In this document: positions 21,289 through 46,452 of the stretch, in pieces
Layout of the letters: every line of letters begins with the position of its first letter
Position numbering within the stretch: the stretch's first letter is position 1
From: an uncultured bacterium
GTDB taxonomy: Bacteria; Verrucomicrobiota; Kiritimatiellia; RFP12; UBA1067
DNA length: 64,000 nucleotides
Reading direction: 5' to 3'
Assembly (NCBI GenBank): GCA_942493055.1
Contig: OW818680.1
Location: 4,544,174-4,608,173 of the forward strand
Made by a program: the position numbers and the translations under genes
Notes under the pieces: generated by a model
Database searches by the model: none
What the model saw: only the letters and a program-made list of their open reading frames with translations
Told to the model about the DNA's origin: nothing

Positions 21289-21314
21289 TGAGCACACATT
21301 AAAGTTCCGTTGAG

Positions 21315-22535: not shown

Positions 22536-22603
22536 ACTGGCCAACACAGATTACGTAACTGCGTTTAGACGCAACAACTGTCCAGCAAAGTAAGGGAGTC
22601 AAA

Positions 22604-23170: not shown

Positions 23171-23255
23171 TTCTCGCAAGCCAAATATGCCACAATGACC
23201 ACGACATTTGTAATGTAGCCCCCGAATAGTGGGGCATGCCTATTATAGGAGTGGA

Positions 23256-26288: not shown

Positions 26289-26346
26289 TGTTCCTGACTG
26301 GCCAAACGCAAGCAGATGTCAAAATAGCGAGAGGATCGAGTAATCG

Positions 26347-29300
26347 ATGAGTGACGGGCAACAGACGATGAATAATGATGTGACGCGGGCCGTGCCGGGC
26401 GGCGCGGGCCGGGCGGAGCTTGAGCCTGGCACACGGCTGGGACGTTATGAGGTTCTGCGCCTCTTAGGTCGCGGGGGCATGGGCCAGGTCTATCTGGCGC
26501 GACATGAGCTGCAGAAGACGCTGCATGCGCTGAAGATCCTGCCGTCCGAGTTCTCGGGCCGCGCCGGCTTCGTGGAACGCTTCCGCACGGAGCTGCAGAC
26601 AATGGCCCGCTTGCAGCATCCGAACATCGTCCATGTCCAGTACTCCGACGTCGAGGCCGGGCTCTATTACCTCGTGATGGATTTCGTGGCGGCGGACGGC
26701 ACCGAGGAGCCATACGACCTGGAGGAGGCACTGGCAATCGAGAAGCGGCTGGAGCCGGAGATCGTGAGGCGGCTGATGCTCCGGCTCTGCGACGGACTCT
26801 CCTTCGCCCACGGCAAGGGCGTGGTCCACCGCGACCTCAAGCCCGCGAATATCCTGCTGACGTCAAAGGATCTGTCGGCTGCGGACGTGAAGATCTGCGA
26901 CTTCGGGCTGGCGCGGGTGGTCGGCGAGGAGCAGGTGCGCACGATGGTGGCGCAGAGCATGCAGCGGTCCATGTCCATAGGCGACCAGGACACCTTCACC
27001 GAGAAGAAGCGTTCCGAACGTAGCAGCACGGGCTCTGTGATGGGCACGTACGGCTACATGAGCCCCGAGCAGGAGGAGGGCAAACCCGCGGACGAACGCA
27101 GCGACCTCTACGCGCTGGGCGTGATGATGTACCGGATGATCACAGGACAGCGGCTGCGGGGGATGGCCAAACCCGCCTCGCAGGTGGTGCCCGGGCTTGA
27201 TCCGGCATGGGACGCGATCATCGGCAAGTGCCTGGAGAACGACCCTGCGGCACGCTGGCAGACAGCGGCGGAGTTGAAAGCCTCCCTAGCGGGAGGGAGA
27301 GTGGCAGTCGGTAGTAGCAGTCGGCAGTGGAACCAGGCCGCGCTGTGGCTGGTGGGTGCGGCGGTTGCGGTCGCGTTGGGGTATGGGGCGTACAGGATGT
27401 ATGCGACCTATAGGGTAGAGATGGAGAGGGATAGGGCCGCCAGTGAGCAGACTGCGAAACTCGATGCGGCGCAGCGGGAGAAGGTTGCCGGGCTTGAAGC
27501 GGCGGCAGAAGCAGCGCTGGCCGCAGGGGATCTGGAGAAAGCGGGCACCAAGATCACGGAGCTGGGGCAACTCGGAGGGACACGCGTCGGCGTGTCCGAG
27601 CTGCGCAAGCGGTACGAGGCCAAGGCCGGCGAGCGCGAAGTGAACAAGCGGTACGCGGCTGCGTCGCTGGCACGGGAAGAGGCGCAGAAGCTGAACCCAG
27701 GCCAGGGCTTCGGGGAGAAGATCAAGGCTTTGGAGACCACGTGGTGCGAAGCTGAGGCTGCGCGTCAGAGCCAGGGCTGGGGCCAGGCGCAGACCGGCTA
27801 CGACGCGGTGCTTGCATCGTGCAAGGCGCTGGGTGAGTTGGATGTCTCGCGCAGAGGCGCAGAGGCGCGGAGGGGTGAAGCGGATAAGGCCAAGTCTGAC
27901 GCTGAGCAGGCCCAGTCCGCGACCGACGCAGCAGATCTTTATGCGGCTGGAGGGCGAGGCTGTGCGCGAGCCGCCGAAACCTTTGAGAAAGGTGAGTTCG
28001 ACGCGGCAGGCAAGGACTGGCAGGAGGCCGTTTCCGCATACACCTCTGCGCGGAAAAATGCAGTAGCAGCGCAGGATTGCCGCAAGGTGAAAGCCTCGTT
28101 CGAATCGGCGCTGGCGCGTGACCGCGCGCTGCTGGAGAAGCACGGCGGGGCAAAATGGGCTGAGGTTCAGAAACAGCAGAAGGCTGCCGAGGTATCGTCG
28201 GCTGACCCTGCCGAGGCTAGCCGAGCCTACGGATTAGCATTGGCAGCCTTGCCGGGAGCAGTGACCGAGGCGAAGGCCGCTGAGCAGGATCGGCTGGCGA
28301 AGGAGAAGGGTGATGCCGAGGCGAAGGCTGCGGAGCAGGATCGGCTGGCGAAGGAGAAGGGTGAAGCCGAGGCGGAGCAGCGGCGGCAGGCCTCAGAGCG
28401 TAAGACACGTGAAGAGAAAGAATCCCGTGATCTGGCCGAGGCGGCCTATACAGCGTGGGCAGCGAAGGCGCAACCGCTGGCAGAGCGTCTCGGGCGAGAC
28501 ATAACTTCGGTTAAAGGGGCTGCCGCGAAGGCGCTGCTAGCCGAGACGGATGCTATACTCATAGGGACGGACAAGCTGGATATTACTTACCTAACGTCCG
28601 CTAGCGTGTCTGGGTTGAAGGCACTCCAGACCAAGTTGCAAAGTCTGAAGGTCGGGATCAAGATCGGGTTCGAACCTGGAGACACGGAAACGGTTGATTT
28701 AGGTTCCGGCGTAAAAATCGAGCTGGCCTGGTGCCCAGCAGGTAGCTTTATGATGGGGAGCCCCTCCACTGAAGCGAACAGGGAGAGCGATGAGTCCCAG
28801 CACCGCGTGACGCTGACGAAAAGCTTCTGGCTTGGGCGCACGGAGGTAACGCAGGCGCAGTGGGAGGCGATCATGGGGAGCAACCCGAGCAAGTTTAAAG
28901 GATCAGATTTACCCGTTGAGACAGTGAGCTGGGACGACTGTCTGGCGTTTATCAGAAAGTTGAATGGAAAACTTGAAACTGGAAATTTGAATTTCCGCCT
29001 GCCCACAGAGGCGGAGTGGGAGTACGCTTGCCGGGCTGGGAGCACGGGTCCATATGCGGGAACGCTGGAGGAGATGGGCTGGTATTTTTCCAACAGCGGA
29101 AACACGATCCACGCAGTCGGACGCAAGTGCGCGAACGCCTGGGGACTGTACGATATGCACGGAAACGTCTGGGAGTGGTGCCAAGACTGGTATGCTGAGT
29201 ATCCTGCGGGTTCCGTGACAGATCCTGAGGGGCCTGCTTCAGGTGCTGGCCGTGTCCGCCGCAGCGGCGGGTGGAACATGAGCAAGGGGAACTGTCGATC

Positions 29301-30369
29301 CGCGGATCGGAACAGGCCTGGCCCGGGCATCCAAATCATCTACGTCGGCTTCCGCCTTGCGAGGAACGCATCGATAGACGAGCCTTCTACTGCTGATGCC
29401 AAGACCGAACAGCAGATGCAACACGAAAACCGGGAAGATGGCAAGGAACCTGTTGATGGGCAAGCATGGGTCTCGCCCTCTTCGGGCATGGAATTCGTCT
29501 GGATACCTGCCCTGAAGATCTGGGTGGGCAAGTACGAGGTGACAAACGGCGAGTATCGGAAGAAGGAGGCTGCGCACGACAGCAAGGATTACAAGGGGAA
29601 CAGCTTGAACGGCGACCGCCAGCCGGTGGTGCAGGTGAATTTCGACGATGCGAAGGCGTATGCCGCGTGGCTTACGGAAAAAGACAGAGAAAAGCTAGGA
29701 GGAAAGCGTTATCGGGTGATCTCGGAGATGGAGTGGCAGACTGTGGCGCAGTGCGGTGACAACAGGGAGTACCCATGGGGAAACGCGCTGCAGCCGAAGT
29801 ACGGAAACTATTATAAAACAGACGCTTATGATGACGGGTTTGTGGTTACGTGTCCCGTGGAACAGAGCGGCAAGAACGACTGGGGCCTTTACGGGATCGG
29901 AGGCAACGTGTGGGAGAGCTGCGCGATGGACGTCTCCGGCTCGTCGTTCGGGGCTTGGCGCGGCGCGTCGTGGGGCTACGACTATCCCGACGTTTTGCGG
30001 TGCGCGGCTCGCGACGGCGGCGGCGGATCGGGCCGCAGCTACTTCTACGGCTTCCGCCTTGTCTTGTCAGGTAACCAGCGAAGTGATGTTGATGAAATAT
30101 CCTCATGTGTTAGCCTGATCAGGAATGCACTCTACAAAGCTTGGAAGCAACCGAAACAAAGTGAAGCGGGTTCACGTCCGGCCAAACTTTATATTCGCCT
30201 TGATGCTTCAGGCAGATTCGTCAATTATCGTATTACTCAATCGTCAGGCAGCACTATCTTTGACACGAGCGTACTGAAGGCCGCAGCCAATTGCCCGCCA
30301 GTTCGTGATGTAACAGCAGGTTTTCTTAAAAAGCATGACGAACTTACAATCGAGTTCAGACTCGAATAG
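26347..30369 (+). CDS. Hanks-type Ser/Thr kinase - TM - coiled coil - two FGE-sulfatase (SUMF1/DUF323-like) domains - TonB_C-like C-terminal domain
   Basis: Same kinase motifs as the previous gene. FGE-like blocks 'VSWDDCLAFIRKLN', 'RLPTEAEWEYACRAGSTGPY', 'GLYDMHGNVWEWCQDWY', then a second copy 'GLYGIGGNVWESC'. C-terminus 'LYIRLDASGRFVNYRITQSSGSTIFDTSVLKAAANCPP' is TonB C-terminal-like. Internal 36-bp tandem repeat at about 28270-28370. Confidence 0.8.
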   Translation: MSDGQQTMNNDVTRAVPGGAGRAELEPGTRLGRYEVLRLLGRGGMGQVYLARHELQKTLHALKILPSEFSGRAGFVERFRTELQTMARLQHPNIVHVQYSDVEAGLYYLVMDFVAADGTEEPYDLEEALAIEKRLEPEIVRRLMLRLCDGLSFAHGKGVVHRDLKPANILLTSKDLSAADVKICDFGLARVVGEEQVRTMVAQSMQRSMSIGDQDTFTEKKRSERSSTGSVMGTYGYMSPEQEEGKPADERSDLYALGVMMYRMITGQRLRGMAKPASQVVPGLDPAWDAIIGKCLENDPAARWQTAAELKASLAGGRVAVGSSSRQWNQAALWLVGAAVAVALGYGAYRMYATYRVEMERDRAASEQTAKLDAAQREKVAGLEAAAEAALAAGDLEKAGTKITELGQLGGTRVGVSELRKRYEAKAGEREVNKRYAAASLAREEAQKLNPGQGFGEKIKALETTWCEAEAARQSQGWGQAQTGYDAVLASCKALGELDVSRRGAEARRGEADKAKSDAEQAQSATDAADLYAAGGRGCARAAETFEKGEFDAAGKDWQEAVSAYTSARKNAVAAQDCRKVKASFESALARDRALLEKHGGAKWAEVQKQQKAAEVSSADPAEASRAYGLALAALPGAVTEAKAAEQDRLAKEKGDAEAKAAEQDRLAKEKGEAEAEQRRQASERKTREEKESRDLAEAAYTAWAAKAQPLAERLGRDITSVKGAAAKALLAETDAILIGTDKLDITYLTSASVSGLKALQTKLQSLKVGIKIGFEPGDTETVDLGSGVKIELAWCPAGSFMMGSPSTEANRESDESQHRVTLTKSFWLGRTEVTQAQWEAIMGSNPSKFKGSDLPVETVSWDDCLAFIRKLNGKLETGNLNFRLPTEAEWEYACRAGSTGPYAGTLEEMGWYFSNSGNTIHAVGRKCANAWGLYDMHGNVWEWCQDWYAEYPAGSVTDPEGPASGAGRVRRSGGWNMSKGNCRSADRNRPGPGIQIIYVGFRLARNASIDEPSTADAKTEQQMQHENREDGKEPVDGQAWVSPSSGMEFVWIPALKIWVGKYEVTNGEYRKKEAAHDSKDYKGNSLNGDRQPVVQVNFDDAKAYAAWLTEKDREKLGGKRYRVISEMEWQTVAQCGDNREYPWGNALQPKYGNYYKTDAYDDGFVVTCPVEQSGKNDWGLYGIGGNVWESCAMDVSGSSFGAWRGASWGYDYPDVLRCAARDGGGGSGRSYFYGFRLVLSGNQRSDVDEISSCVSLIRNALYKAWKQPKQSEAGSRPAKLYIRLDASGRFVNYRITQSSGSTIFDTSVLKAAANCPPVRDVTAGFLKKHDELTIEFRLE

Positions 30370-30586
30370 GTAGAGCGCGTCCCTCCCTTGAGCGCGGTAA
30401 ATCCATCTTCCAGCGTGATTGCTGGGATACGCAGTTGCGGGTGGCGAGAGTTGCCATGAAAAACGGGAATATGTTCGCAACAATCCCGTGCGACGGGGGT
30501 TGGTTGCGTGACCGGACGCGCAACCCTCCTATGCTTTGCTCCGGAGGCCAAGCGCGCATCCTTCCGAATCAGTGCCGGAAAATGCG

Positions 30587-30602
30587 CAGACAGGAATGTC
30601 TG
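30587..30602. promoter_or_regulatory. Perfect-arm palindrome CAGACAggaaTGTCTG (putative operator) about 90 bp upstream of the promoter
   Basis: Arms CAGACA/TGTCTG are exact reverse complements. Same 26-nt block 'cagacaggaatgtctg[c/t]gccaccttg' at about 46453 and about 55029. Confidence 0.4.
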
Positions 30603-30669
30603 CGCCACCTTGCGCGTCCATCCGAAATATCGAATAATGAATGATAAAATAAAATATTTAAAAATAGCA

Positions 30670-30700
30670 GTTGACAACAAACATAAACAAACGTTAAGAT
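30670..30700 (+). promoter_or_regulatory. Sigma70-like promoter: TTGACA - 17 bp - TTAAGA(T), AT-rich UP region
   Basis: ttgacaacaaacataaacaaacgttaagat, then ggcgtttta. RBS agaggag before ATG 30731. Near-identical module at about 46526. Confidence 0.5.
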
Positions 30701-30730
30701 GGTGGCGTTTTAAAGAAGAGGAGTATACTT

Positions 30731-31072
30731 ATGGCAACTGATAAAGAGTTTTTGAGTTTGGAGGAGGTCGCAGATGAGATGGGGGTGACTTATCAGCTCA
30801 TTTATCGTCTCGTGCGCTCGGGTGAGTTGCCCGCCGCTCGGATCGGCAAGCTCTATCGCGTGTCGCGCTCGGATCTGGGTGAGTATCTGCAGCAGAGTAA
30901 AAAGGGTTCGTTCGAGGGCGGAACGTGCATGGCCTGCGGGACCTTCTATCGGAGTAAGGGGACGCTTCAACAGGCGTGCACGGTCTGCGGCGCTCCGGTC
31001 TGTTTTGATTGCTGGGTGCGTCAAGGTGTGCGGGAGTGCGCAGCGCACAAGAACGAAGCTGAAAAGAAATAA
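30731..31072 (+). CDS. Excisionase/MerR-family HTH DNA-binding protein with C-terminal Cys4 zinc ribbon
   Basis: 'LSLEEVADEMGVTYQLIYRLVRSGELPAARIGKLYRVSRSDLGEYL' is an Xis-type HTH. 'CMACGTFYRS...CTVCGAPVCFDCW...CAAH' is a zinc ribbon. Confidence 0.6.
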   Translation: MATDKEFLSLEEVADEMGVTYQLIYRLVRSGELPAARIGKLYRVSRSDLGEYLQQSKKGSFEGGTCMACGTFYRSKGTLQQACTVCGAPVCFDCWVRQGVRECAAHKNEAEKK

Positions 31073-31165
31073 TTCACCCCTTTTTTCATGAATTAACGTT
31101 GACTCTGTTGGTGGCAATTCGTAAACTCTCAACAAAGATGGGTTTTAAAGAAAGCGAGGAACAAG

Positions 31166-32836
31166 ATGGGCATATTCAGTGATACGTGTGACGCATTGAT
31201 TGATCCGAATACAGGCAAGGCTTTAACAGCCGCTGCACTGGAACAGGGAAAGCTGGATCCCAAGTGGCCCAGATGCAATAACTCGGTACGCAAGGGTGCC
31301 CGCTTCTGCAACAAGTGCGGCTCTCCCGCGCCGGGCGGCTGGTGGAAGTGCCCCTCGTGTAATAAATGGATTGGCAATGACGCGCAGTTCTGCTCGCATT
31401 GCAATACGCCCTTGTATCCTGAAGACCGCAGTGCCATCGCGGGCGGGGTGTGGCGCAAGGATCCCGGACTGCTGGCCCAGCGCTTTGAAATCGGGGACAT
31501 CAAACGTCTGCTCAAAGATGATTTGCAGATTCAAGAGGGGACCGTCGCAGTCGTGATCGACGGCGGACATCTCCACGGGATACTCGAGAGCGGCCGTCAC
31601 AACCCTGATAGCCTGATGCGCCGGATCAACTGGTTCGGCAATCCGCCGCCGCGCTCGACCGTGCTCATGGACGCGGGCGATGTCGCGCTTCCGCTGAAGG
31701 TCGAGGGACTTCGCACGGCAGAGCATCATCCCATTGAATTCTACGGTGAGGTCATCCTGCGCTTTGTCAATGACAAGGCCTCCGCGCTCGCCTTTCTTGA
31801 AAACGCCCTCAAGGATCGCCGCCAATTGACCTATCAGGATATTTCAGCCTCGTTGCAAGGGGTCGTCCGGACGGCGGTGGATGCGCTCTGCGTGACCTCG
31901 AAGCTGGACGACCTGGTGCGTGATCCTGAACGGCGCATGCGTCTACAGGAGACCATGGTCCGGGTGATCGGCGAAGATGTGGGACGCTATGGACTCCAGG
32001 TGGTGCGCGTCTCCTCTGCGGAGTTCACGGGCGAAGCCTACGAGGAGTATGCCGAGCAGCTCGGCGACGTGGATATCAAGCGCCGCCAGCTGGAATATGC
32101 GGCCACGATGCGCGCCATGCTGAACAAAGAGACGATGTCCCAGATCAAGGACCAGAACGAGCTGTTGGAGTATGAAGCGCAGGCAGCCCAGGAGTTTGGC
32201 ATTTCGCAGGCGCATCGCGAGCAGGAACGCACCGTATTACTCCGTGGCTTTAATCACCAGAATGAACTGGACGAACTGCGCCATCAGCATGATGTTGAAA
32301 ACCAGGAGGTGGAGCAGTCCATTGGCGTCAAGGTCAAATGGGATGACTATAATCTTGAGCTTCAGATCAGGAAGGCCAACACGGATGCCGATGTACGGCG
32401 CATTGCTGTTACGCAGGAGATGGAGGAGGCCAGAGATGCCTTGAAGCTGCGGCAGGAGAAGGACCGCGTTGACCAGGAGCGCAAAGCCGCGGATGCCAAG
32501 CGCCGTGCGAACATGTCGTTGCAGGAACGGCTGATGGATGTGGATGATCCGGCGGTGCGGGCTCAGCTCCTGGAACTCATGATCACCGAGCGCAATCAGA
32601 ACATGACGCCCGAGCAGATTCTGGCCGAAGCGGCCCGGCACAGCCCTGCGGCTGCCGCGGCGCTCGCCAGCATGAGCGACAAGAGCAAGGAAAATGCCGA
32701 ACGTGTCTTATCGGAGATGAAGAAACTTTATGCCGATGCGAATGATCGGCAGGACAAGAATCTTAAAACCATGCTTGAACCAGCGGTCGAGGCGGCAAAA
32801 CGGCCCGGAGGGCCTCCGCAGACGATCATACGTTAA
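31166..32836 (+). CDS. Double zinc-ribbon + SPFH/Band-7 (flotillin-like) domain + long coiled coil
   Basis: 'RCNNSVRKGARFCNKCGSP...WKCPSCNKWIGNDAQFCSHCNTP'. SPFH-like 'VLMDAGDVALPLKVEGLRTAEHHPIEFYGEVILRFVNDKASALAFLEN...VVRTAVDALCVTSKLDDLVRDPERRMRLQETMVRVIGEDVGRYGLQVVRVSSAEF'. Glu/Arg/Gln-rich coiled coil follows. Confidence 0.55.
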   Translation: MGIFSDTCDALIDPNTGKALTAAALEQGKLDPKWPRCNNSVRKGARFCNKCGSPAPGGWWKCPSCNKWIGNDAQFCSHCNTPLYPEDRSAIAGGVWRKDPGLLAQRFEIGDIKRLLKDDLQIQEGTVAVVIDGGHLHGILESGRHNPDSLMRRINWFGNPPPRSTVLMDAGDVALPLKVEGLRTAEHHPIEFYGEVILRFVNDKASALAFLENALKDRRQLTYQDISASLQGVVRTAVDALCVTSKLDDLVRDPERRMRLQETMVRVIGEDVGRYGLQVVRVSSAEFTGEAYEEYAEQLGDVDIKRRQLEYAATMRAMLNKETMSQIKDQNELLEYEAQAAQEFGISQAHREQERTVLLRGFNHQNELDELRHQHDVENQEVEQSIGVKVKWDDYNLELQIRKANTDADVRRIAVTQEMEEARDALKLRQEKDRVDQERKAADAKRRANMSLQERLMDVDDPAVRAQLLELMITERNQNMTPEQILAEAARHSPAAAAALASMSDKSKENAERVLSEMKKLYADANDRQDKNLKTMLEPAVEAAKRPGGPPQTIIR

Positions 32837-32854
32837 AACAGAGGACTAAAAATA

Positions 32855-34348
32855 ATGGCGCGTATCACGTGCAAGGAGTGTGGCAAACGGACTGCTGAGG
32901 GGCCGTTCTGCGATGAGTGCGGCGCTGCGCAGGACGGCTCCGTCAACCCATTAGCCCAGAAGCCGGAACCGGCTCCCTTCCGGGACGACTTGCCGACTCA
33001 AGATAAAAAAATTGTGATTGAGCTGCCCAGCCAGGAGAGGCCGCAGCCGGCGACGCAGGCTGCGACTTCTTCGCAGAGTGAACCCTTCTCCTCTACCTTT
33101 GACGACTGTCCCTGGTTGTGGGTGGAGCGCGACCGGATGATCTCCTGTCTGGAGAATGCGAATGGCGTTTTGCGGTTCAAGCTCTCCGCCCATGCGGAGG
33201 GCATGGAGGATGTGCGTGTGAACCTGCGCTTCCAGAGGGGAAGCGCTGCGGCGATCCCCTGGATGAAGCCAAAATTCGGCCAAACCAAAGAGCTGAAGCT
33301 GAATATTCCTCCGATGCCGCCAGGGGCGCATCCAGTGGAACTGCATCTTCAGCTTCGCAAAGATCACCAGAATCTGAAATTCGAGACCACGATCGAACTC
33401 TACGTCTATCCCACGGACAGTTCGGCCGGAAAAATCGCTGAGAGTATTGTCTTTAACATCACGAACGACATCAAGACAGGGCATGCCTCGGATGTGCATC
33501 TGTCACAGGATGCGGCGAGTGCGTTTAAGCAGTTCACGAAAAATGGACATCCGCACGCCTTGACAGATCTCTTGAATCTGATGAACACGGAACTGCGCGC
33601 CTATCGCCGAGAGGAACTCTATGAGGCTGGTTGCGAAAGTGCACCCGCGTCTCCGACGCCCCCTCCGCAGGAGGCGCTCTGCAAACGCCTCTCCCTTTCT
33701 GTGGGAGGACAGATGCTGCATCTGATTGCTGAGCGCCGGGCGACGCTGGGCAAGAACCGGGACAATCACGTGGTGACGCGCCGCTTCAATCCGCAAGGTG
33801 TTGCGGATGTGCAACTCTGCGAACGGATCAGCAAGTTTCACTGCACTGTGGAGCTGGAGGGTATGGCGTGTGTGCTTCAAGATGGCGTACGGGATGAGTA
33901 CGGCCGTCCCAAGCCTTCGACCTGGGGCATCTCCTGGCAGGGAAAAGCGATACAGGGGTCCCTGCGGCTTCCCCTGGAGACCCTGCCAGCGCGCGGGCAA
34001 CTGGGTTTGGTCAACAACGTAGGCCACTCGGATTTCGAGTTGACCGTCTGTCCACATCCCTTTGATTTTACCCAGTGTTCCACCTGCAGCCAGCAAGCCC
34101 GTCAAGCCTGCTCGAATGGACGCATCCCGGCGCTGCTGCTGCGCAGGACCGATCAGGTGCAGGAGCACTATCTGCTGGCGTGGTCCTGCTTTGATTTAGG
34201 GTGCGTGTTTCCTGAGTGCGCGGGCATGGTGGTCTGCTATGAACAGGGCGCCTTTTCCATCCGCTCCTCAGGCACGTTCGGCTGGCTTGTGCCAGGACGG
34301 CACGTCGGCATGATCGAAGTCCGGTCATTTGCTCAGTATGGATTGTAA
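32855..34348 (+). CDS. N-terminal zinc ribbon + FHA (phosphothreonine-binding) domain protein
   Basis: 'CKECGKRTAEGPFCDECGA'. FHA block 'ATLGKNRDNHVVTRRFNPQGVADVQLCERISKFHCTVELEGMACVLQDG...STWGISWQGKAIQG' (G-R...S..H......L.D..S.NG pattern). Confidence 0.6.
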   Translation: MARITCKECGKRTAEGPFCDECGAAQDGSVNPLAQKPEPAPFRDDLPTQDKKIVIELPSQERPQPATQAATSSQSEPFSSTFDDCPWLWVERDRMISCLENANGVLRFKLSAHAEGMEDVRVNLRFQRGSAAAIPWMKPKFGQTKELKLNIPPMPPGAHPVELHLQLRKDHQNLKFETTIELYVYPTDSSAGKIAESIVFNITNDIKTGHASDVHLSQDAASAFKQFTKNGHPHALTDLLNLMNTELRAYRREELYEAGCESAPASPTPPPQEALCKRLSLSVGGQMLHLIAERRATLGKNRDNHVVTRRFNPQGVADVQLCERISKFHCTVELEGMACVLQDGVRDEYGRPKPSTWGISWQGKAIQGSLRLPLETLPARGQLGLVNNVGHSDFELTVCPHPFDFTQCSTCSQQARQACSNGRIPALLLRRTDQVQEHYLLAWSCFDLGCVFPECAGMVVCYEQGAFSIRSSGTFGWLVPGRHVGMIEVRSFAQYGL

Positions 34349-34374
34349 GATGTTCAACAAAGGAGGGGTGTATC

Positions 34375-35004
34375 ATGGCTTTTTTATTTATTAAGACGAA
34401 GAAGGAGAAGGCACGCGAGGTGCGTAAGGATCGCCGCCGCGCGTTCCGTCAGGCTGAGAATTCGATTCAGGATGTGAAGGACCGTGCCAAGCGCATGGAC
34501 AAGGATGCCGATGCCGACTGGCAGAAGGCGCGCGATGCGCTGAAGGAAGGCAAGAAGGCCGCGGCCCAGCGTGCGCTGACGAGCTATCGGGCTGCTCAGG
34601 TGCTGATGACCAAGCTGGAACAGAAACGGTGGGTCTTCGAGCAGTACCTGATGAAGATGGAGGCCGCAGGAACCGATGCCGAATTTGCGAATGCCCTTGC
34701 CTCGGTCAACAAGGTGACCGACATCAATCCTGAGATGGTCGAGGATGTCTTCGACACCGCCGGCGAACTGCTCGGCGAACAGCAGGACGCGGACCGTTTC
34801 TGGTCCTCCCTGTACGACAAGGAGATGGAAGGGGCGACCGGTTCATTGCAGGATCACATCCCCTCCATGGAAGAACTCAGCCAGGCGCTGGAACAGGAAG
34901 TCGCCGCTGAAATTTCAGGGAGCGGTGCCAAGACCGCCTCCGAGATGGAACGCCGCATCGGCTCAGGACAGGACAAGGTGCGCGAGATGCTCGGCGGGAA
35001 GTAA
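34375..35004 (+). CDS. ESCRT-III/Snf7/PspA-superfamily-like coiled-coil protein
   Basis: 209 aa. Basic N-terminus (KTKKEKAREVRKDRRR). 'KKAAAQRALTSYRAAQVLMTKLEQKRWVFEQYLMKMEAAGTDAEFANALASVNKVTDINPEMVEDVFDTAGELLGEQQD' parallels Snf7 'KKRYEKQL...EALENANTNTEVLKNM..AAKAMK...MDIDKVDELMQDIADQQELAEEIS'. Acidic C-terminus. Assignment by motif only. Confidence 0.45.
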   Translation: MAFLFIKTKKEKAREVRKDRRRAFRQAENSIQDVKDRAKRMDKDADADWQKARDALKEGKKAAAQRALTSYRAAQVLMTKLEQKRWVFEQYLMKMEAAGTDAEFANALASVNKVTDINPEMVEDVFDTAGELLGEQQDADRFWSSLYDKEMEGATGSLQDHIPSMEELSQALEQEVAAEISGSGAKTASEMERRIGSGQDKVREMLGGK

Positions 35005-35189
35005 GCGATGTAAGAGCCCATGCGGGAACAAACTGACTTGTGATTTTTTTCTCACAGAGGCACAGAGCTCACAGAGAAATGCTTTTGTCGCGTTTTTAGG
35101 GTGTTGCGTGGAAACCCCAATAGAAATTACACGCGCTCGTCCTTCCCATAACGCGTGCCTCTTTTTTTGTTTTTTGTAAAGGTTCAGTT

Positions 35190-36329
35190 ATGAAGACATT
35201 AGCAGAGATGAAGGCTGAGCATGAACAAGCGTGTGCCGAATTCGTGAAGGTGCATGACTATGCCCGCGCAGCAGTGGAGGCCGCGCGTGCGGCTGAATAC
35301 GGTTATGCGCTTGCCGGGCGTACCTCCGGTTCTGTCGCAGAGGCGCATACGCAAGACGCGGATGGGTGGGTGGCGTTGTCAGGAGAGCTGAAGAAGAGAA
35401 AGTCGGCAGTGGGCAGTGGGCAGTCGGCAGTTGATGGGAGGAGATCTGACGGTGGAGAACAGAAGGCCGATGCAGAAGCGACGGGCGGCGATGAGTGGCT
35501 GGTGGCGGAGAAGCCGGATGTGACCTTTGAGGATATTTGCGGGATGGCGGAGGCCAAGCGCGTGATTCATGAAATGGTGGTCTATCCCATGAGCAGTCCT
35601 GAAAAAGCCCGGGCGTTGGGACTGAATGCCGGTGGCGGCGTCCTTGTCTATGGCCCTCCCGGGACTGGAAAGACCATGCTGGGCAAGGCTGTCGCGGGTG
35701 TGTTGCAGTGTCCCTTCTATTATGCCTCGGGTGCTCAAGTGCGCTCGAAGTGGTACGGAGAGTCTGAGCAGCGGTTGAGCCGCTTGATTAAGACGGCCCA
35801 GGAGCAGCCCATGGCGGTTCTCTTTCTCGATGAGGTCGAAGCGCTCCTGCCCAAGCGGGAGGATGGCACGTCTGGAGCGGATCATCGCCTGGTGACGCAG
35901 TTTCTGGCGGATGTCGGCGGCTTCAGGGAGACTAAAAATATTCTCTTGATCCTCGGTGCGACGAACAAGCCCTGGGAGATCGACGAGGCGGTCTTCCGCT
36001 CAGGCCGCTTCGATGAAAAGATCTATATCGGATCCCCGGACTATGAAGCCCGCTTAGGCATCCTCAAAAAACATATTGGCATTGCCGCATGCGACGAAGC
36101 CGTGAACATGGAGTCCCTTGCTGAATCGTTGGAAGGATTTTCAGGAAGTGATGTGGCCGGAATTGTTCATGCCGCTAAACGGTTGGCTCTGGGGCGCGCC
36201 GTCCTCACGGAGCGCGAGCCTGTGATCATTGCCGATGATTTTGAAAACGCCCGGCAACGGATACCGAGTTCGATCACGTCTGAGATGCTGTCCGAGTTCG
36301 AGGCCTTTAAGAAAAAAAGATTCGGATAA
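35190..36329 (+). CDS. AAA+ ATPase, Vps4/CDC48-like clade, with about 110-aa helical N-domain (possible MIT-like)
   Basis: 'PDVTFEDICGMAEAKRVIHEMVVYP', Walker A 'GVLVYGPPGTGKTMLGKAVAG', 'SKWYGESEQRLSRLIKTAQEQPMAVLFLDEVEALL' (Walker B/DEVE), SRH 'LILGATNKPWEIDEAVFRSGRFDEKIYIGSPD'. GCAGTNG microsatellite encodes the 'SAVGSGQSAVDG' linker. Confidence 0.75.
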   Translation: MKTLAEMKAEHEQACAEFVKVHDYARAAVEAARAAEYGYALAGRTSGSVAEAHTQDADGWVALSGELKKRKSAVGSGQSAVDGRRSDGGEQKADAEATGGDEWLVAEKPDVTFEDICGMAEAKRVIHEMVVYPMSSPEKARALGLNAGGGVLVYGPPGTGKTMLGKAVAGVLQCPFYYASGAQVRSKWYGESEQRLSRLIKTAQEQPMAVLFLDEVEALLPKREDGTSGADHRLVTQFLADVGGFRETKNILLILGATNKPWEIDEAVFRSGRFDEKIYIGSPDYEARLGILKKHIGIAACDEAVNMESLAESLEGFSGSDVAGIVHAAKRLALGRAVLTEREPVIIADDFENARQRIPSSITSEMLSEFEAFKKKRFG

Positions 36330-36335
36330 CACAAC

Positions 36336-38996
36336 ATGGATAAATCAATCGGCAATCAAAAGACGATGAAACCTGCTGGATCAGACGACCGCAGCCTGGG
36401 CAGTGTTCAGACGATGCCATCCGGAGGGGCAAGGTCGAACAACGACAAGAGCCTGGGCAGCGTCAAGACGATGCACCCGGGCAGCCTGCGTCCTGTGGGT
36501 CGGCGCTTTTGTGCCGGGGATGTGATCCTCGGGCGTTACCGCGTGACGGAAGAGCTCGGCCAGGGCGGCATGGGCGTGGTATATCGATGCTTCGATGCGG
36601 TGGCTGGGATCGACGTGGCGCTTAAGGCGTTGCCGCCCGAGGTGGCGCACAACAGCGGTGAGATGGAGGAGGTGCGCGCGAACTTCCGGCTGGTCTCGAA
36701 GCTGCATCATCCGAACATCGCCAATGTCAACACACTTGAACGCGATGTTGTGACAGGCGACTATTACCTGATCATGGAATGCGTAGACGGTTACGATGTG
36801 CGGCAGTGGGTGCGGCGTCGGCGCGAGGATGGACGGCCGCTGACGCTTGATGAGGTGACGATCATCGCATACCGCATCGCTGAGGCGTTGGACTACGCGC
36901 ATGAGCAGGGCGTGATCCACCGGGATATAAAGCCGAGTAATGTGCGCGTCAACTTTGAGGGCGAAGTGAAGGTACTGGACTTCGGCTTGGCGGCGCAGCT
37001 CCACATGAGCCTGAGCCGCGTGAGCCAGGCAACCCATGGCACCAGCGGTACGGGGCCCTACATGGCGCCCGAACAGTGGCGGGGCCAGCGGCAGGGAACA
37101 ACCGCGGACCAATACGCGTTGGCCGCAACGGTCTACGAGTTGCTGGGCGGGACGCCGCCGTTCGAGAACCACGATACGGCGGTGCTGCGCGAAGCGGTGT
37201 TGAAGGATGCTCCCCTGCCATTAAAGGGTGTTCCGTCGCACGTCAACGCGGCGTTATTGAGGGGGTTGGACAAGGTTCCGGAACAACGGTTTGAAAGTTG
37301 CGCCGAGTTTGTAAAGGCGCTCGCGGGCAGCAGGAGGCAGGAGACGGTAGACGGTAGTCAGAAGTCAGAGGTCAGAAGCCGGAAGTGGCCCTGGCTGGTC
37401 GGGCTTGCGTCGTTCGTCACAGTGGCGACAGTGGCATGGATGCAACATTACGGAAGACAGAAGGCAGGTGACGGGAGTCAGACTGGGGAGGCAGGTAACG
37501 TGCCCTCAGCGCGAGTTCCAAGGGGGCAAGCCGGTGCGGCTGCGGCCTCGCCGGAAGCGCCGGTACGCGCCTTCTCTAGCTCATCAACCCCTGCATCGCC
37601 CGCAGCCGATATTGCCACGCCGGTCTCGCCAACGCCATCTGGTCAGCCGTGGACCAACAGCCTCGGCATGGTCTTCGTGCCGGTGCCTGGCACGGCGGTG
37701 AGGTTTTCGATCTGGGATACGCGCGTGCAGGATTTTTCGGTGTTTGTCAATGATCGCGCGAACAATGCTGGCTACGATTACCGGAAAGGGAGTGTGCCAA
37801 ACACATGGATACAGGGAGAGGGGTGGGGGGAGCGCGGATGGGAATACGACTGGAGCAATCCAGGATTTGCGCAGACACCTCTACATCCGGTCGTTTGTAT
37901 GAATTGGGATGACGCCCAGGCCTTCTGCGCATGGCTGACGGCGAAGGAACGGAAGGAGGGAAAACTTTCTAGCCAGCAAAGCTATCGCTTGCCAACGGAT
38001 GCGGAATGGAGTTTTGCGCTGGGTATAGGGGAGTTGGAAAGCAATGGCGCGCCCAAGGATAAGAACAGGAAAGTCAAGGATGTGTATCCATGGGGGACGC
38101 AGTGGCCGCCGCCGCAAGGGGCTGGAAATTATGCTACTGTACTACATGTGGACGACTATGATTATTGTACAGCGCCTGTAGGTAGTTTTGCGGCCAACCG
38201 GTATGGGCTTTACGACATGGGCGGGAACGCCTGGAAATGGTGTGAGGATTTGTACGATCCCGGCCAGACGAAACGCGTGCAACGGGGCGTGGGCTGGGGA
38301 GGGGCGTTTGACGACAATCCTTCCCCTCATCTGCTTTCCTCGGTGCGCTGTGCCTTTGCACCTGATTATCGCAACAATTTTCAGGGCTTTCGTGTGGTGT
38401 TGTCCAATGGTGACGTGTCGGTGCCGCCGGCTTCCTCCCTCCAGTCCAGCACAGGTGTCGGCTTGAATAACGCAGTGTCGTGGGTCATCCCGACGCTTCC
38501 TAAGGCGGATCGTGATGGCTGGGTCACGCTGTTTGACGGCAAGCATTTGTATGGCTGCAACCCGGCCGACCCAAAATTCACCTCGGGTCAGGTCTATTTC
38601 AAAGATGGATATTTATGCGTAAATGACACCGGGTTCAGCTTCGATTGGAAAGGGGAGAATGCCACCATCCGTGCGCGAGTAAAAAAGATAAACGGCATGC
38701 ATGTAGCTTTGCATATTGGGCCGTGTTTCGCTTGGTATGGGAATGGTTTTGGGATCAGCCAGAAAGTGTCCGGCCGCGATCGGGCTCCCATATTGATCTC
38801 TCGCAAGTTGATGTCTAAGACTAAAGGATTTGTTGACCTTGAACTTTCCATGACTGGAAGCCAGCTTGAATTCAGATTCAACGGTACCGTGGTGCTAACA
38901 AAGCAGGCTCTTCCTTTTGAGTACAATGAAAAGTCTGTTCAAGTTTCGACATGGAAAGGCCTAAGCCAATTCGAAAGAATCGAAGTGAAACAGTGA
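36336..38996 (+). CDS. Hanks-type Ser/Thr kinase - TM - FGE-sulfatase-like domain - DUF1080 (concanavalin-like) C-terminal domain
   Basis: N-terminal 'SIGNQKTM' motif (plus SLGSVQTM, SLGSVKTM). 'LGQGGMGVVYRC', 'HRDIKPSNVRV', 'DFGLAA', 'GPYMAPEQ'. TM 'WPWLVGLASFVTVATVAW'. FGE-like 'VCMNWDDAQAFCAWL', 'RLPTDAEWSFA', 'GLYDMGGNAWKWCED'. 'DGWVTLFDGKHLYGC' is DUF1080-like. Confidence 0.8.
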   Translation: MDKSIGNQKTMKPAGSDDRSLGSVQTMPSGGARSNNDKSLGSVKTMHPGSLRPVGRRFCAGDVILGRYRVTEELGQGGMGVVYRCFDAVAGIDVALKALPPEVAHNSGEMEEVRANFRLVSKLHHPNIANVNTLERDVVTGDYYLIMECVDGYDVRQWVRRRREDGRPLTLDEVTIIAYRIAEALDYAHEQGVIHRDIKPSNVRVNFEGEVKVLDFGLAAQLHMSLSRVSQATHGTSGTGPYMAPEQWRGQRQGTTADQYALAATVYELLGGTPPFENHDTAVLREAVLKDAPLPLKGVPSHVNAALLRGLDKVPEQRFESCAEFVKALAGSRRQETVDGSQKSEVRSRKWPWLVGLASFVTVATVAWMQHYGRQKAGDGSQTGEAGNVPSARVPRGQAGAAAASPEAPVRAFSSSSTPASPAADIATPVSPTPSGQPWTNSLGMVFVPVPGTAVRFSIWDTRVQDFSVFVNDRANNAGYDYRKGSVPNTWIQGEGWGERGWEYDWSNPGFAQTPLHPVVCMNWDDAQAFCAWLTAKERKEGKLSSQQSYRLPTDAEWSFALGIGELESNGAPKDKNRKVKDVYPWGTQWPPPQGAGNYATVLHVDDYDYCTAPVGSFAANRYGLYDMGGNAWKWCEDLYDPGQTKRVQRGVGWGGAFDDNPSPHLLSSVRCAFAPDYRNNFQGFRVVLSNGDVSVPPASSLQSSTGVGLNNAVSWVIPTLPKADRDGWVTLFDGKHLYGCNPADPKFTSGQVYFKDGYLCVNDTGFSFDWKGENATIRARVKKINGMHVALHIGPCFAWYGNGFGISQKVSGRDRAPILISRKLMSKTKGFVDLELSMTGSQLEFRFNGTVVLTKQALPFEYNEKSVQVSTWKGLSQFERIEVKQ

Positions 38997-39257
38997 TTGG
39001 GCACAACGCCGTGAAGCGTATCGCTGAAGTGACGAAAGAGGAGTCTGAAGATTTTTATTATGTGTGAGTTACCTTGGACTGTTAGGCAGTTGCTATGAAT
39101 ACTGACATGGAGAGGTGTTTTCGTGTAATTTGCTCGCCCGGAATGCGCAGAATGTGTTGGACAAGCGGGGCAAAAAGGGGTACGATTTTCCACGTTGCTT
39201 TGTTGCTTTTCTTAGTATCCTGTAAGTTTATCAGGTTCCCCATAAATAATATCTACT

Positions 39258-42200
39258 ATGAATACTGACATTGATGAATCGATCGGCAATCAGAAAACCA
39301 TGGGCGGTGTGATTGAGACGGACGAAAGCAGCATAGGGGACAACGCCACCATCGGACGGCAAGGGATCACGCTGGGACATGTTGACCAGTATGAACTCGT
39401 CCGTGAACTCGGTGGTGGCGGCTTCGGTGTGGTCTTCCTCGCACGGGATACGGTCTCAGGGATCGAAGTCGCTGTCAAGGGGTTGCCGCCCATTGTGAAG
39501 AACAATGAGGAGGAACTTGAGCAAATCCGTCGTAATTTCGCCTTGGTCTCAAAGCTGCACCATCCGAATATCGCGGCTGCGTTGGTGCTTCATCGTGCAC
39601 GGGATGTTCATTACGAGCTTGAGCAGGTACGGCAGTCCCTGCGCGTGGTTTCCGGTGATACGCTGATGGTCATGACGTATGCCCCAGGGGTGACGCTCTC
39701 AAAGTGGCGCAAACAGTTTCCTGAAGGTCGTGTGCCTGTAAAGCAGGCTATTGATGTCTGCCAGCAAATTGCGTCAGCCATGGATTATGCCCATGGCGAG
39801 AAGGTCGTGCACCGGGATATTAAGCCGGCAAATGTCATGATTGAAACGCGCCGGAGGATGTCAGAGGCCGGGAAGGTGTCCTATGAAGAACTTCAGATGC
39901 GGCTTGCCGTGAAAGTGCTGGATTTCGGTTTGGCTGCCGAGATTCGTAGCAGCATGAATCGTGTGAGCCAGGCGACTGGCGATACGAGCGGAACGCGGCC
40001 TTACATGGCGCCGGAACAGTGGGCAGGAAAGAAGCAGGATGGGAGAACAGACCAGTATGCACTGGCAGTCCTTTTTTATGAATTGGTGAGCGGCGAGGTT
40101 CCCTTTGCAGGGGCGTTTGAGACGGGTGATCCGGTTGTAATGATGGCGGCTGTCGAACGAAACACTCCCGAGACGTTGCCCATGTTGTCGGCTGCGCAAA
40201 ATGCAGCTCTGGCGCGCGCCTTGTCAAAGAATCCTGCCCAGCGCTATGAGTGCTGTTCCGCCTTCGCGGAGGCGTTGTCAGGGATGCAAGTGAGTGTGGA
40301 GCACTCTGTCAATGCGCTGGGAAAAAATGGAGCGGAAATTATCAAGGCGGTGCAGACGTATAACAAGACGGTTTCCTGGGTGAGTCGTTTGCCGCTGCTA
40401 AGGTATCTCCAGATTGGACGAGAGTTGCTGGTGGACCTGCTTGCGGTCATCCCCCCTGTTTCACGTTTTGCTGATCGGGTTTTGGGAATGCTGGTAGCTC
40501 CGCGAGACACATGGAACTGGATTCGTTCAGAAAAAAAGAGTGCTTGGGAAATCTATCGAGGATACGCGTTGGCGCTTGTCGCGATCTCATTTCTGCCCTC
40601 CGTCTTCAATGCGATCCACTTGAGCAGATATACTTCGGGGTATTGGACGTTGGGGAGCAGATTGTCTTGTGTCCTTTTGAGGTATGTGTTGACGCTGGTC
40701 GGTCTTTTTGTTGTGGCAAAGATAATCGATGGACTGGCAGCAAAATTAGATGCCCAAAAAAAGTGCGCTTTCAAGCTGGTTTTCTTCTCCTTGGTCCCCG
40801 TATTTCTTGCAATGTCGATTGTTGGCTTTGGAGGCTTTGCTTGGTTGTATTGGCTGGCCTGGGTAGATGCGCTTGTTCTGCTCTATTTTGGAATACGCGT
40901 GCTGATGGAATGCCCAAAAGGGAAAGCGTATGCCTATACAGCTGTAACCGTGGCGCTCTTGGTGGGGTTAAATAGTAGTGTGAGCCATATTGTCATGCGC
41001 TCTGAACAGGGACTTCTGAGAGGGGGCTTCTCTTCAATCTGGAATACAACGAAAGTTCGTCCAACGGGCGGTGGCGAGTTTACATCAACCACCCCGCCCT
41101 CGACTCCGCGTGACCCAGATGCCCCACGTACACCCCAAAACCCTCAGTGGATGTTTATGCCAAGCAGGATCTATCCAGGAAGTGCTTTTCCGCCCATGAA
41201 CCTCCCAAAGGATGTTTGGTTGCCTCCTACTGCCCAGTGCATATTCATCCAGCGTGAATTCCCTTCAAATAGCCCGACCAATACGCATGCTATCTTCGGA
41301 TTGAGTTCGCAGTCGGAATTGAGTTCGTTTTGTGAGATGATGAAGACAAATGGCTGGAGAATCATCAGAATGGGAAGCCCAAACGGCCAGCAGTATGGCA
41401 GGATGGGGCCTCCTCACTTCTCCGCGTCATTTGCGAAGCCAAAGCGAATCACGACGCTTATGCAAAAGATGGATTTCAGTTTCGAATTGTTGGTTTACGG
41501 TCCTGAAGACGACGCCGGGGGTCTGGTTAAACCAGCGGACATTGCACTTGCGACCGTCAACGGCGAGCCGACTAAGCCATTCGATCCCGCTGCGGACAGG
41601 ATTGAAAAGATGGATCCGGAAAGGGCGGAAGCCATTCGTCTCATGAAGAAAAAGATAAAGCAGCAGGCCGATGAGGCCGATCAACAACTCGCGGCGGAGG
41701 CCTTAAACAAAAGTAAACTTGAAAAAGAGAAGGAGCTGGAGGCAGAGCGGTTGAAGACTGAAGAAGAGGCTCGGAAAATGGCGGCTGCGGCTGCGGAGGC
41801 GGAGGATCTTCGCCTTGCAGAGGAAGAGCGTCAGAAGGCTGAGGCCCGGCGTCAAGCGGAAGCCGCACGTGCAACTCAGCTCACGAATGGACTGCTTCTG
41901 GCCAAGCAGATGGTCGATCAAGAGGAGTGGGCTGATCTTCTTGTCCAGGCAAATGCACTCCTGGAACTGGATCCTCAAAACGCAACCGCTAAGAAATATA
42001 AAGGGTGGGCGGAGGACTATCTAAATATGCCGATCTTAAAATTGATTGCAATGGTGAACGGTAAAGAGGTCAATGCTCAAGTGAAGATTGATAATGAGGT
42101 AAGGCCTTCGCCTGTAAAGCTAATTATGGAAAGAACACAATACAGTGTTGAATTGTCTTATGAAGAAGGTGATAAAAAATATGAAGCGAAAGAGTTCCTT

Positions 42201-43055: not shown

Positions 43056-43079
43056 GGGTGACCGTGGTAGGTAACGACT

Positions 43080-46322: not shown

Positions 46323-46337
46323 AACATTGGTATGACC

Positions 46338-46356
46338 GGACGCGCAACGCGCGTCC
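46338..46356 (+). terminator. GC-rich perfect hairpin immediately after kinase gene (terminator-like)
   Basis: ggacgcgc-aac-gcgcgtcc, 8-bp perfect stem. No strong U-tract. Confidence 0.35.
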
Positions 46357-46371
46357 CTCCGAGGAGAGGCA

Positions 46372-46440
46372 GGGAGTCGATGGGAGTCGAGGAAATCGAT
46401 AGAGTCGACAGAATCGAATCAGTCGATTCCATCGATTCGG
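46372..46440. promoter_or_regulatory. Iteron-like array: about 7 (A/G)(G)TCGA(T) cores at about 9-10 bp periodicity upstream of the duplicated operator/promoter
   Basis: gagtcgatgggagtcgaggaaatcgatagagtcgacagaatcgaatcagtcgattccatcgattcggg. Many cores are the palindrome ATCGAT/GTCGAC. Confidence 0.35.
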
Positions 46441-46452
46441 GCGAATTGATCG

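Follow-up and report, generated by a model that had tools for sequence, protein, structure and literature searches.

Together, ESCRT-III and Vps4 form the signature membrane-remodelling machine of eukaryotes, which has been traced to archaea, and the known ESCRT-III systems usually employ two or more paralogues. Recent reviews confine the pairing of ESCRT-III with an ATPase to archaea and eukaryotes, a 2025 review stating that a Vps4-like ATPase “appears absent in bacteria”, and comparative work and reviews leave bacteria with a distant PspA/Vipp1 branch only, which has no Vps4-type partner (PMC10936438, PMC7619361). In archaea, ESCRT loci were reported to include FHA proteins, membrane Ser/Thr kinases and phosphatases, and SPFH, coiled-coil and Zn-ribbon partners, in different variants (Makarova et al. 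2024, PMC10936438). MIT+Vps4-like ATPases were reported to have been transferred from archaea to bacteria, Opitutus included, with snf7 replaced by a TPR-6TM gene, and sporadic bacterial Snf7 homologues were noted in other contexts (Ravi et al. 2024, PMC11237479). On the PspA side, the pspA-ydjGHI operon of B. subtilis unites an SPFH protein, Zn ribbons and an ESCRT-III-superfamily protein (PMC11237479; PMC10936438), the SPFH protein YdjI localising PspA, as cited in PMC10936438. Here we describe a five-gene module in a 64-kb stretch of DNA (contig OW818680.1 of an uncultured bacterium of the Kiritimatiellia; the whole stretch is called the window), in which the gene of a Snf7-type ESCRT-III protein is followed by that of a Vps4/CDC48-like AAA+ ATPase, together with genes for SPFH and FHA proteins. 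Literature searches found no published description of such a module, in agreement with an earlier interpretation of the same letters (the sequence-only reading), which had called it uncharacterised in bacteria. It is best filed as a bacterial version of the ESCRT-III/AAA systems, joining in one operon partners that are scattered across the archaeal variants.

In the ORF (open reading frame) list of the window the module appears where the sequence-only reading had placed it, as five co-directional ORFs on the + strand, which we name g1 to g5 in 5′ to 3′ order; the gaps between them, put earlier at 20-190 bp, are 93, 18, 26 and 185 bp. The first gene, g1 (30731..31072), encodes 113 aa with an HTH_17/excisionase-type DNA-binding domain and a C-terminal Cys cluster. 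It is followed by g2 (31166..32836; 556 aa), whose double zinc ribbon and SPFH/Band-7 domain precede a long C-terminal half that is charged and helical, and by g3 (32855..34348; 497 aa), with a zinc ribbon, a variable linker, a middle domain, a divergent FHA domain and a Cys-containing C-terminal domain. The ESCRT-III protein of the Snf7/CHMP clade is g4 (34375..35004; 209 aa) and the Vps4/CDC48-like AAA+ ATPase is g5 (35190..36329; 379 aa). A hydropathy scan found no hydrophobic segment in any of the five proteins. All five domain assignments made earlier were upheld by profile searches, those of g3 and g4 at the level of the family. A sixth gene, for a Hanks kinase (36336..38996), starts 6 bp past the stop codon of g5, with which it is probably co-transcribed. 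The arrangement is far beyond chance and recurs in 39 species-level genomes.

The identity of g4 is carried by its family, which comprises more than 700 sequences at 90% clustering and 197 clusters at 50% identity (E<=1e-3), all of about 200-230 aa, and is closed. Pfam Snf7 (PF03357) was matched by 21 of 22 close relatives and by 33 of 58 diverse members, with a best value of 5e-11, and PspA_IM30 (PF04012) by none of these 22 and 58 proteins. Searched alone against the PDB, g4 gave weak Snf7 matches (0.075). When a family profile built from the 58 diverse members was searched against 177,635 PDB sequences, the significant matches were ESCRT-III proteins only: yeast Snf7 came out best (1.3e-10), and Heimdall ESCRT-IIIB was matched over about its full length (2.9e-8; positions 17-213 on 10-216 of 218); the others were Loki CHMP4-7 (2e-4) and CHMP1B, CHMP3 and CHMP2A (1e-3 to 3e-2). 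PspA and Vipp1 chains were absent from the match list of this profile. The AlphaFold2 (AF2) model of g4 has helices at residues 9-57, 61-97, 101-115, 122-134, 139-148, 165-181 and 184-207, a pattern of alpha1-alpha2 hairpin, alpha3-5 and tail which fits the ESCRT-III plan and its size of about 200-240 aa, and the best natural Foldseek matches of the model were CdvB2, CdvB, Snf7 and IST1. The helical hairpin with alpha3-5 that had been anticipated for this protein is therefore found in the predicted structure. The N-terminus of g4 is hydrophobic and basic (MAFLF..KKEK..RKDRRR); across the family alignment the M-x-F-L-F start is kept, M1 and F6 being near-invariant, and a K/R-rich stretch follows. 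The C-terminal tail is acidic and then basic, with a conserved acidic helix (P163..EVAAE) and a terminal helix (GQ[ED][RK]V+xLLxGK), and is cut back in a subgroup of 193 aa. On profile matches we assign g4 as an ESCRT-III subunit of the Snf7 clade and not of the PspA/Vipp1 clade, so that the ESCRT-III-like protein of the sequence-only reading stands at the level of both Pfam and PDB. A generic coiled coil was considered as well and is ruled out by the specificity of the family profile for ESCRT-III, despite the weak single-sequence evidence in Pfam (1e-3) and in the PDB.

The second line of evidence comes from a census of loci, in which one genome was taken per GTDB species and comparison was made at the level of ORFs. 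The 39 loci found lie in metagenome-assembled genomes labelled Kiritimatiellia/Kiritimatiellae, Lentisphaerae/Victivallales or Verrucomicrobia/Verrucomicrobiota, or left without a named taxon. In 30 of the 34 eligible loci an AAA gene follows the Snf7-like gene, on the same strand and no more than 5.5 kb away. An SPFH gene lies upstream in 27 of 32, an FHA gene of the g3 type is present in 24 of 32, and the Zn-ribbon-FHA gene of four further loci is a different one. A g1-type HTH gene was found upstream in 19/32 eligible loci, and at least one Hanks kinase in 30 of all 39, located after the AAA gene in many loci and between the Snf7-like and AAA genes in several. The identity of g4 across the loci is 55-97% in 38 of them and 43% in the remaining one. 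The most divergent family members that could be placed (about 24% identity; L046 and L047) have neither SPFH nor FHA, and their AAA gene lies 22-25 bp downstream; the AAA partners in these loci retain the same N-terminal helical domain. These locus counts and divergent loci make the Snf7-like–AAA pair the invariant core, and SPFH, FHA, HTH and kinase a clade-specific shell. Thus g5 is genetically locked to g4, and the gene order proves conserved in relatives from the Planctomycetes-Verrucomicrobia-Chlamydiae (PVC) superphylum, down to members that are about 24% identical.

The partner, g5, is a single classical-clade AAA cassette (Pfam AAA, 7.7e-36, with AAA_lid_3) that carries a Walker A motif GPPGTGKT, a pore loop 1 SKWYGESE and a second region of homology (SRH) RSGRFD. 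In an alignment of 24 relatives, a conserved N-domain of about 70 residues and a variable low-complexity linker precede the cassette, and AF2 predicts helices at 4-20, 24-43 and 48-75 (pLDDT 75-89), a disordered linker at 74-103 and a C-terminal helix at 364-378. As predicted, this succession of an N-terminal three-helix unit, linker, AAA cassette and C-terminal helix is the Vps4 layout, and the three-helix unit is kept even in partner ATPases that are 33% identical. In this way the helical N-domain of the sequence-only reading is recovered in the model, whereas its possible likeness to MIT went undetected in Pfam and PDB profile searches; an MIT assignment is unproven, having found no support in Pfam, single-sequence or profile-versus-PDB searches. 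The NCBIfam scores were 208 bits for CDC48 (2.4e-61), 196 for CdvC (9.5e-58), 190 for PAN and 180 for FtsH, all of them under the family cut-offs, the alignment to CdvC spanning model positions 81-367 of 370. Pfam Vps4_C found no match in g5. Reference sequences for the further comparisons were taken from PDB alignments. The last 99 residues of g5 align end to end with Vps4 of S. solfataricus (Sso), M. sedula and A. hospitalis, and p97 D2 aligns equally well; the motif GATNKPW.(I/L)DEA (NKPW motif) is shared with Sso Vps4. In a small neighbour-joining tree rooted with FtsH, the g5 family and Sso Vps4 formed a clade at 100% bootstrap, and support fell to 62, 81 and 55% when divergent members were added; these trees hold six references, without katanin, spastin and PAN, and long-branch attraction is possible. 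In two divergent partner ATPases (L045:5726-6871 and L046:6711-7790) the SRH has the form seen in Sso Vps4, shorter by two residues, and since the subgroup of the window has the CDC48-type RxGRFD, the family covers both SRH forms. Structure did not discriminate Vps4 from CDC48: with the g5 model, Foldseek matched p97 D2 at 9e-20 and Vps4 of M. sedula at 4.6e-18, with an identity of about 34% in either case. Orthology with Vps4 is thus moderately supported; the affinity is plausible but not established, and therefore “Vps4/CDC48-like” is the accurate label. Of the ATPase assignment made earlier, the classical AAA stands; SKWYGESE does not serve as a Vps4 cue, as the second AAA domain (D2) of VAT, the Thermoplasma CDC48 homologue, has SKWVGESE.

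In an unlikely reading, g5 would be a general CDC48-like unfoldase with the kinases, the assembled SPFH protein or something else as its substrates, for example in the extraction or quality control of membrane-associated complexes, and g4 a coiled-coil adaptor whose likeness to ESCRT would be evolutionary only. The top scores of g5 to CDC48, VAT and p97 D2, its CDC48-type SRH and the absence of an MIT signal would all suit such an enzyme, and SPFH proteins classically pair with AAA proteases, as in HflK/C-FtsH. Yet the partner that is invariant throughout the family is the Snf7-like gene, and not SPFH or the kinases; g4 retains the full ESCRT-III helix plan and an N-terminal motif of membrane type, and no protease domain is fused to g5 or universally linked to it.

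Upstream of the core pair, g1 matches Pfam HTH_17 (5.1e-14) and TIGR01764 (1.4e-14) and has three C-terminal CxxC pairs, at residues 66, 83 and 91; it is likely a regulator, as the earlier description of an HTH/Zn-ribbon protein implied. For g2, the SPFH domain is found at residues 121-313 (Pfam Band_7, 5.1e-9; 36.9 bits versus a gathering score of 23.6) and the Zn ribbons at the N-terminus (Zn_Ribbon_1, 8e-9; DZR, 1.8e-7), which likewise agrees with the sequence-only reading. The N-terminal membrane anchor typical of stomatin, HflK/C and flotillin was not found in g2 by the hydropathy scan (maximum KD19 1.15). Its N-terminus is filled by the double Zn ribbon, as in cytosolic YdjI-type and archaeal ESCRT-linked SPFH proteins, and g2 can be taken as a soluble SPFH protein with Zn ribbons. 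In g3, the N-terminal CxxC...CxxC forms a zinc ribbon. The g3 of the window itself had no Pfam match, its FHA domain being below detection, though FHA (PF00498) was matched by 20 of the 24 family members (the window protein and 23 relatives; best 1e-10). Within the family, positions G299, S326, H329, D343, S355 and G358 are invariant, the FHA domain extending over about residues 285-370. At this family level the assignment of g3 as a Zn-ribbon FHA protein is sound, and in this form the earlier claim holds. Among solved structures its closest relative is ArnA of Sulfolobus, a ZnR-FHA protein (5a8i, 2.2e-6, mainly via the Zn-ribbon/linker region), which has the same order of Zn ribbon, linker and FHA. 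ArnA acts with the Hanks kinases ArnC/D and with ArnB. In contrast to ArnA, g3 is twice as long, with extra middle and Cys-rich C-terminal domains, has no vWA partner and stands in the context of ESCRT-III and not of motility regulation.

The company of an SPFH protein, Zn ribbons and an ESCRT-III-superfamily protein recalls B. subtilis pspA-ydjGHI (PMC11237479, PMC10936438), also named samGHI, a system which works on the cytoplasmic membrane. Accordingly, one may think of a strict PspA-like effector of envelope stress, equivalent to PspA/YdjGHI, that would form a passive protective carpet, with an ATPase that is merely regulatory like PspF; by hydropathy all module proteins are cytoplasmic or peripheral, which would be compatible with it. 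We regard this as the least probable of the alternatives, as g4 belongs by its matches to the Snf7 clade, with no PspA_IM30 match and no PspA/Vipp1 in the PDB profile search, and g5, with its pore loop for substrate threading, falls in the classical AAA clade and is not a bacterial enhancer-binding protein of NtrC/PspF type. Moreover, unlike the PspA/Vipp1 systems, the module adds FHA and Hanks kinases to its classical AAA and is without PspB/C, PspF, LiaIH or Toastrack partners.

There is likeness also to the archaeal systems of CdvB/ESCRT-III and CdvC/Vps4 (the non-Asgard “Main”, “Halo_FHA” and “Meth_adaptin” variants; PMC10936438), where the ESCRT-III gene also lies directly upstream of a single-cassette AAA gene, the ATPase also has a small helical N-domain and a linker, and FHA, membrane Ser/Thr kinase and SPFH occur as accessories. 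Under the second Vps4 criterion of Makarova et al. 2024 (PMC10936438) g5 would count as a Vps4, as it adjoins ESCRT genes in 30/34 loci and also in L046 and L047. The present module differs in being bacterial, in having FHA, SPFH and kinases all in one operon, in having a single ESCRT-III paralogue and a CDC48-like SRH in the window subgroup, and in the lack of a detectable MIT domain and of an ESCRT-I/II-like or CdvA-like gene. The eukaryotic pair of Snf7/CHMP4 and Vps4 resembles it as well: yeast Snf7 and B-type ESCRT-III are what the g4 family profile matches best, and the helix plan, the putative N-terminal membrane motif and the proposed logic of a polymer with an AAA recycler are common to both; on the other hand, there is no Pfam signal for MIT or Vps4_C, no beta-domain, no Vta1, no ESCRT-0/I/II and no ubiquitin link, and regulation would appear to run via Hanks kinases and FHA. 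Among bacteria, the MIT+Vps4-like ATPases with a TPR-6TM partner of the type of Opitutus terrae Oter_1429 (PMC11237479) likewise put a Vps4-like ATPase in PVC and other bacteria, but those operons have TPR-6TM in place of snf7 and a recognisable MIT, whereas the present operon has its Snf7-clade gene and no recognisable MIT.

Five Pkinase genes, starting at 23229, 26347, 36336, 39258 and 43080, flank the module, as had been claimed before. Of the two upstream, both on the + strand like all five, 23229..26288 is recognised by Pfam Pkinase, and 26347..30369 encodes 1340 aa with one transmembrane segment, two domains resembling formylglycine-generating enzyme (FGE-sulfatase) and a TonB_C-like C-terminal domain. 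The kinase directly after g5 (36336..38996) has Pkinase (3.1e-43), a C-terminal FGE-sulfatase domain (2.9e-31) and one weakly hydrophobic putative transmembrane segment, under the 1.6 cut-off. In the tandem kinases 39258..43055 and 43080..46322, a Yip1-type multi-transmembrane domain lies between the kinase domain and the C-terminal region, the former also having FGE-sulfatase; such a combination with the Yip1 family is an unusual kinase architecture.

From the domain identities and genetic linkage, which are observed, we infer the function of the module, and we consider it to be a bacterial ESCRT-III system of the PVC lineage, that is, a kinase/FHA-regulated Snf7-like polymer with an ATPase recycler at the inner membrane, with a probability of roughly 0.6. 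In such a system, the transmembrane kinases would pick up an envelope signal with FGE-sulfatase-like domains that lie outside the cytoplasm, and would then phosphorylate Thr residues, either their own or those of module proteins. The FHA domain of g3 would read phospho-Thr and, with the SPFH scaffold of g2, mark a patch of inner membrane, the Zn ribbons common to the module proteins possibly being shared docking modules. Then g4 would bind the marked patch via its hydrophobic/basic N-terminus, open and polymerise, and the resulting filaments would stabilise, bend or cut the membrane. A g5 hexamer could dock on the C-terminal tail of g4 via the three-helix N-domain and thread g4 subunits through the KW(Y)G pore loop, allowing ATP-driven turnover or disassembly as for Vps4/CdvC, while g1 would control the conserved promoter. 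Membrane repair under envelope stress, vesicle formation and a division-related cut are candidates for the cellular output. In type VI secretion, the membrane Hanks kinase PpkA and the FHA adaptor Fha1 gate polymer assembly by threonine phosphorylation, and the AAA+ ATPase ClpV recycles the polymer. The likeness to this PpkA-Fha1/ClpV pathway is in logic only; the polymer and ATPase families are unrelated, and no homology is claimed.

Several observations weigh against an ESCRT-III system of this kind. As a single sequence, g4 remains sub-threshold for Pfam Snf7 (E=1e-3; 19.2 bits, gathering score 27.3), no clear MIT-interacting motif (MIM) could be assigned in its tail, where we assert no MIM1 or MIM2 consensus match, and the operon of the window holds a single clear ESCRT-III paralogue. 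The MIT domain itself was not found, either by Pfam in 12 N-domains of the g5 family (E<=10 or E<=1) or among PDB chains by the single sequence or the family profile of g5. With 195.9 bits, g5 stays far below the cut-off of 650 of the NCBIfam CdvC equivalog (NF041006), and by blastp it is as near to CDC48/VAT D2 as to Vps4 (p97 D2, 37%, 185 bits; VAT D2, 40%, 172 bits; S. solfataricus Vps4, 35%, 168 bits), in addition to its SRH being of the CDC48 type RxGRFD. Finally, the g3 of the window and its five closest relatives have GK in the FHA loop, versus the canonical GR in most relatives, and no phosphatase was found in the window.

Variant loci carry added genes, which encode envelope proteins with signal peptides or lipoprotein features, peptidases (C1, M4 and U49/M48-like) and a Zn-finger helical protein. 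The last of these, accessory “cluster 1”, occurs in 16 loci (L021:8612-9583, L029:8900-9868 and 14 others), where its gene sits between the FHA and Snf7-like genes; it has an N-terminal Cys/His zinc finger and a helical region of about 200 aa, and is absent from the window. Its profile matched only Snf7/CHMP4B in the PDB, and weakly so (E 0.012-1.3), and hhalign gave no significant alignment between “cluster 1” and the g4 family; the protein may represent a diverged second paralogue of ESCRT-III. The ORFs of about 210 aa located upstream of divergent family members gave no signal of an ESCRT-III paralogue. Accessory “cluster 0” was seen in L021, L027, L034, L036, L037, L040, L041, L043 and L044, with one to three paralogues per locus, again between the FHA and Snf7-like genes; these proteins have signal peptides or lipoprotein boxes, some with a C-terminal transmembrane anchor, which points to species in which the module extends across the envelope. 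Peptidases lie in the operons or at their edge in five cases (L040:10570-11700, L041:6610-8487, L002:3653-4864, L046:578-1588 and L047:1570-4644), and the operon-linked types are U49 (Lit-like)/M48-like, thermolysin M4-like and papain C1-like. The C1 peptidase ORF of L002 also resembles the HTH of g1.

Such accessory content raises the question of an anti-phage or conflict system of the abortive-infection type, in which kinases and FHA would sense infection, the AAA protein would be the activator, and the Snf7-like polymer, SPFH or peptidases would be effectors acting on membrane or proteome. The varying accessories speak for it, among them peptidase genes within operons (Lit-like Peptidase_U49/M48, thermolysin-like M4, papain-like C1), together with the AbiEi/AbiEii and ParE genes that adjoin some loci, the patchy distribution within one superphylum only, and a TIR-8xMP gene 11 kb upstream of the module. 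In PADLOC 2.0, the HTH of g1 resembles mad1 (7.5e-10) and g5 matches IetA models (1.4e-29). However, these are generic HTH_17 and AAA similarities, far weaker than the matches to excisionase and CDC48; apart from mad1, IetA and TRIP13 similarity of this generic kind, no system-specific model was matched, and none fits the SPFH, FHA or Snf7-like proteins (g2, g3 and g4). Furthermore, a search of 2.9 M viral contigs turned up no relatives, a peptidase is missing from the window copy, and the core proteins are conserved (g4, 55-97% identity in 38/39 loci) in a stable gene order, unlike fast-shuffling defence islands. On balance, a role in defence seems improbable to us, and the ESCRT-III system remains the preferred reading.

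As to regulatory DNA, a sigma70-like promoter on the + strand (30671..30700; TTGACA, a spacer of 18 nt, TAAGAT) matches at 10/12 positions, has an AT-rich upstream block and lies 30 bp before the ATG of g1. Overall, the sigma70 scan found 2 sites, versus 2.2 expected from shuffles. The promoter block ...TTTAAAAATAGCAGTTGACAAC..AAATAAACAAA..TAAGAT... is kept in L007, L008, L009 and L005, the DNA further upstream being unalignable; since the block is thus conserved in five diverged loci amid otherwise unalignable upstream DNA, a real promoter is supported, possibly with a regulator site, and the sigma70 promoter that had been proposed ahead of g1 gains phylogenetic backing. At 30584..30605, 65 bp upstream of the -35 box, there is a perfect 9+9 inverted repeat (GCGCAGACA ggaa TGTCTGCGC), with no T-run after it; L008 and L009 have different palindromes at about the same place, and the hairpin therefore seems to be kept there but not its sequence. 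The operator formerly placed at this palindrome is not supported, as its sequence is not conserved in relatives. A further hairpin on the + strand, CACGCG...CGCGTG with a T7-G-T6 run (35130..35175), lies inside the 185-bp spacer between g4 and g5. It is speculative that this could be a leaky terminator which sets the g4:g5 ratio; the folding z-score of the spacer was not significant versus shuffles, and spacer length varies among relatives (3-240 bp and more). An Rfam scan of 26-44 kb of the window gave no match.

The wider window holds other genes of note. The gene at 18379..19431 on the - strand joins a ThsB-like TIR domain to an octameric membrane-protein domain of the 8xMP type (Pfam, 6.9e-8 and 3.5e-24). 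No patch in the first half of the window is lower in GC than the one in which it lies (0.479 at 18-20 kb), and it has the look of a small insertion of defence type. Before it, a run of + strand genes at 231..17919 includes carbohydrate esterases of the SASA type (231, 5397, 6871 and 14393), a GHL6 hydrolase (9316), a Peptidase_C25-like gene (10604) and DUF6288 with HEAT (15484); these genes probably make up a cluster for glycan degradation, of a kind typical of Kiritimatiellota-like bacteria. The kinase array is immediately preceded by 19666..21288 and 21315..22535, which encode adjacent GYF_2-domain proteins, one of them with DUF4234. Over 1..64000 almost all long ORFs lie on the + strand and the cumulative GC skew climbs near-monotonically, which is consistent with one leading-strand replichore segment.

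A conserved bacterial operon that locks a Snf7-clade subunit to a Vps4/CDC48-like ATPase alters the phyletic picture of this machinery, and it does so in PVC, a superphylum whose eukaryote-like membrane biology is already under debate. The finding is highly interesting on two counts: it runs against a phyletic generalisation now current, and it offers a bacterial model of ESCRT that is tractable. Since the module unites sensor kinases with a scaffold (SPFH) and a reader (FHA), the targeting and switching-on of a prokaryotic ESCRT-III become directly testable with few soluble proteins, and the module also offers new sequences for rooting the trees of Vps4 and ESCRT-III. Perhaps, and here we stop somewhat short of even odds, PVC bacteria (Kiritimatiellia, Lentisphaeria and allied Verrucomicrobiota) have a genuine ESCRT machine, a Snf7-clade polymer driven by a Vps4-related ATPase, that would be homologous, by ancient inheritance or inter-domain transfer, to the archaeal ESCRT which uses FHA, kinases and SPFH, and that would carry out ATP-dependent scission, vesiculation or repair under phospho-threonine control. 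If this is true, these bacteria would provide a bacterial model for the mechanism and evolution of ESCRT.

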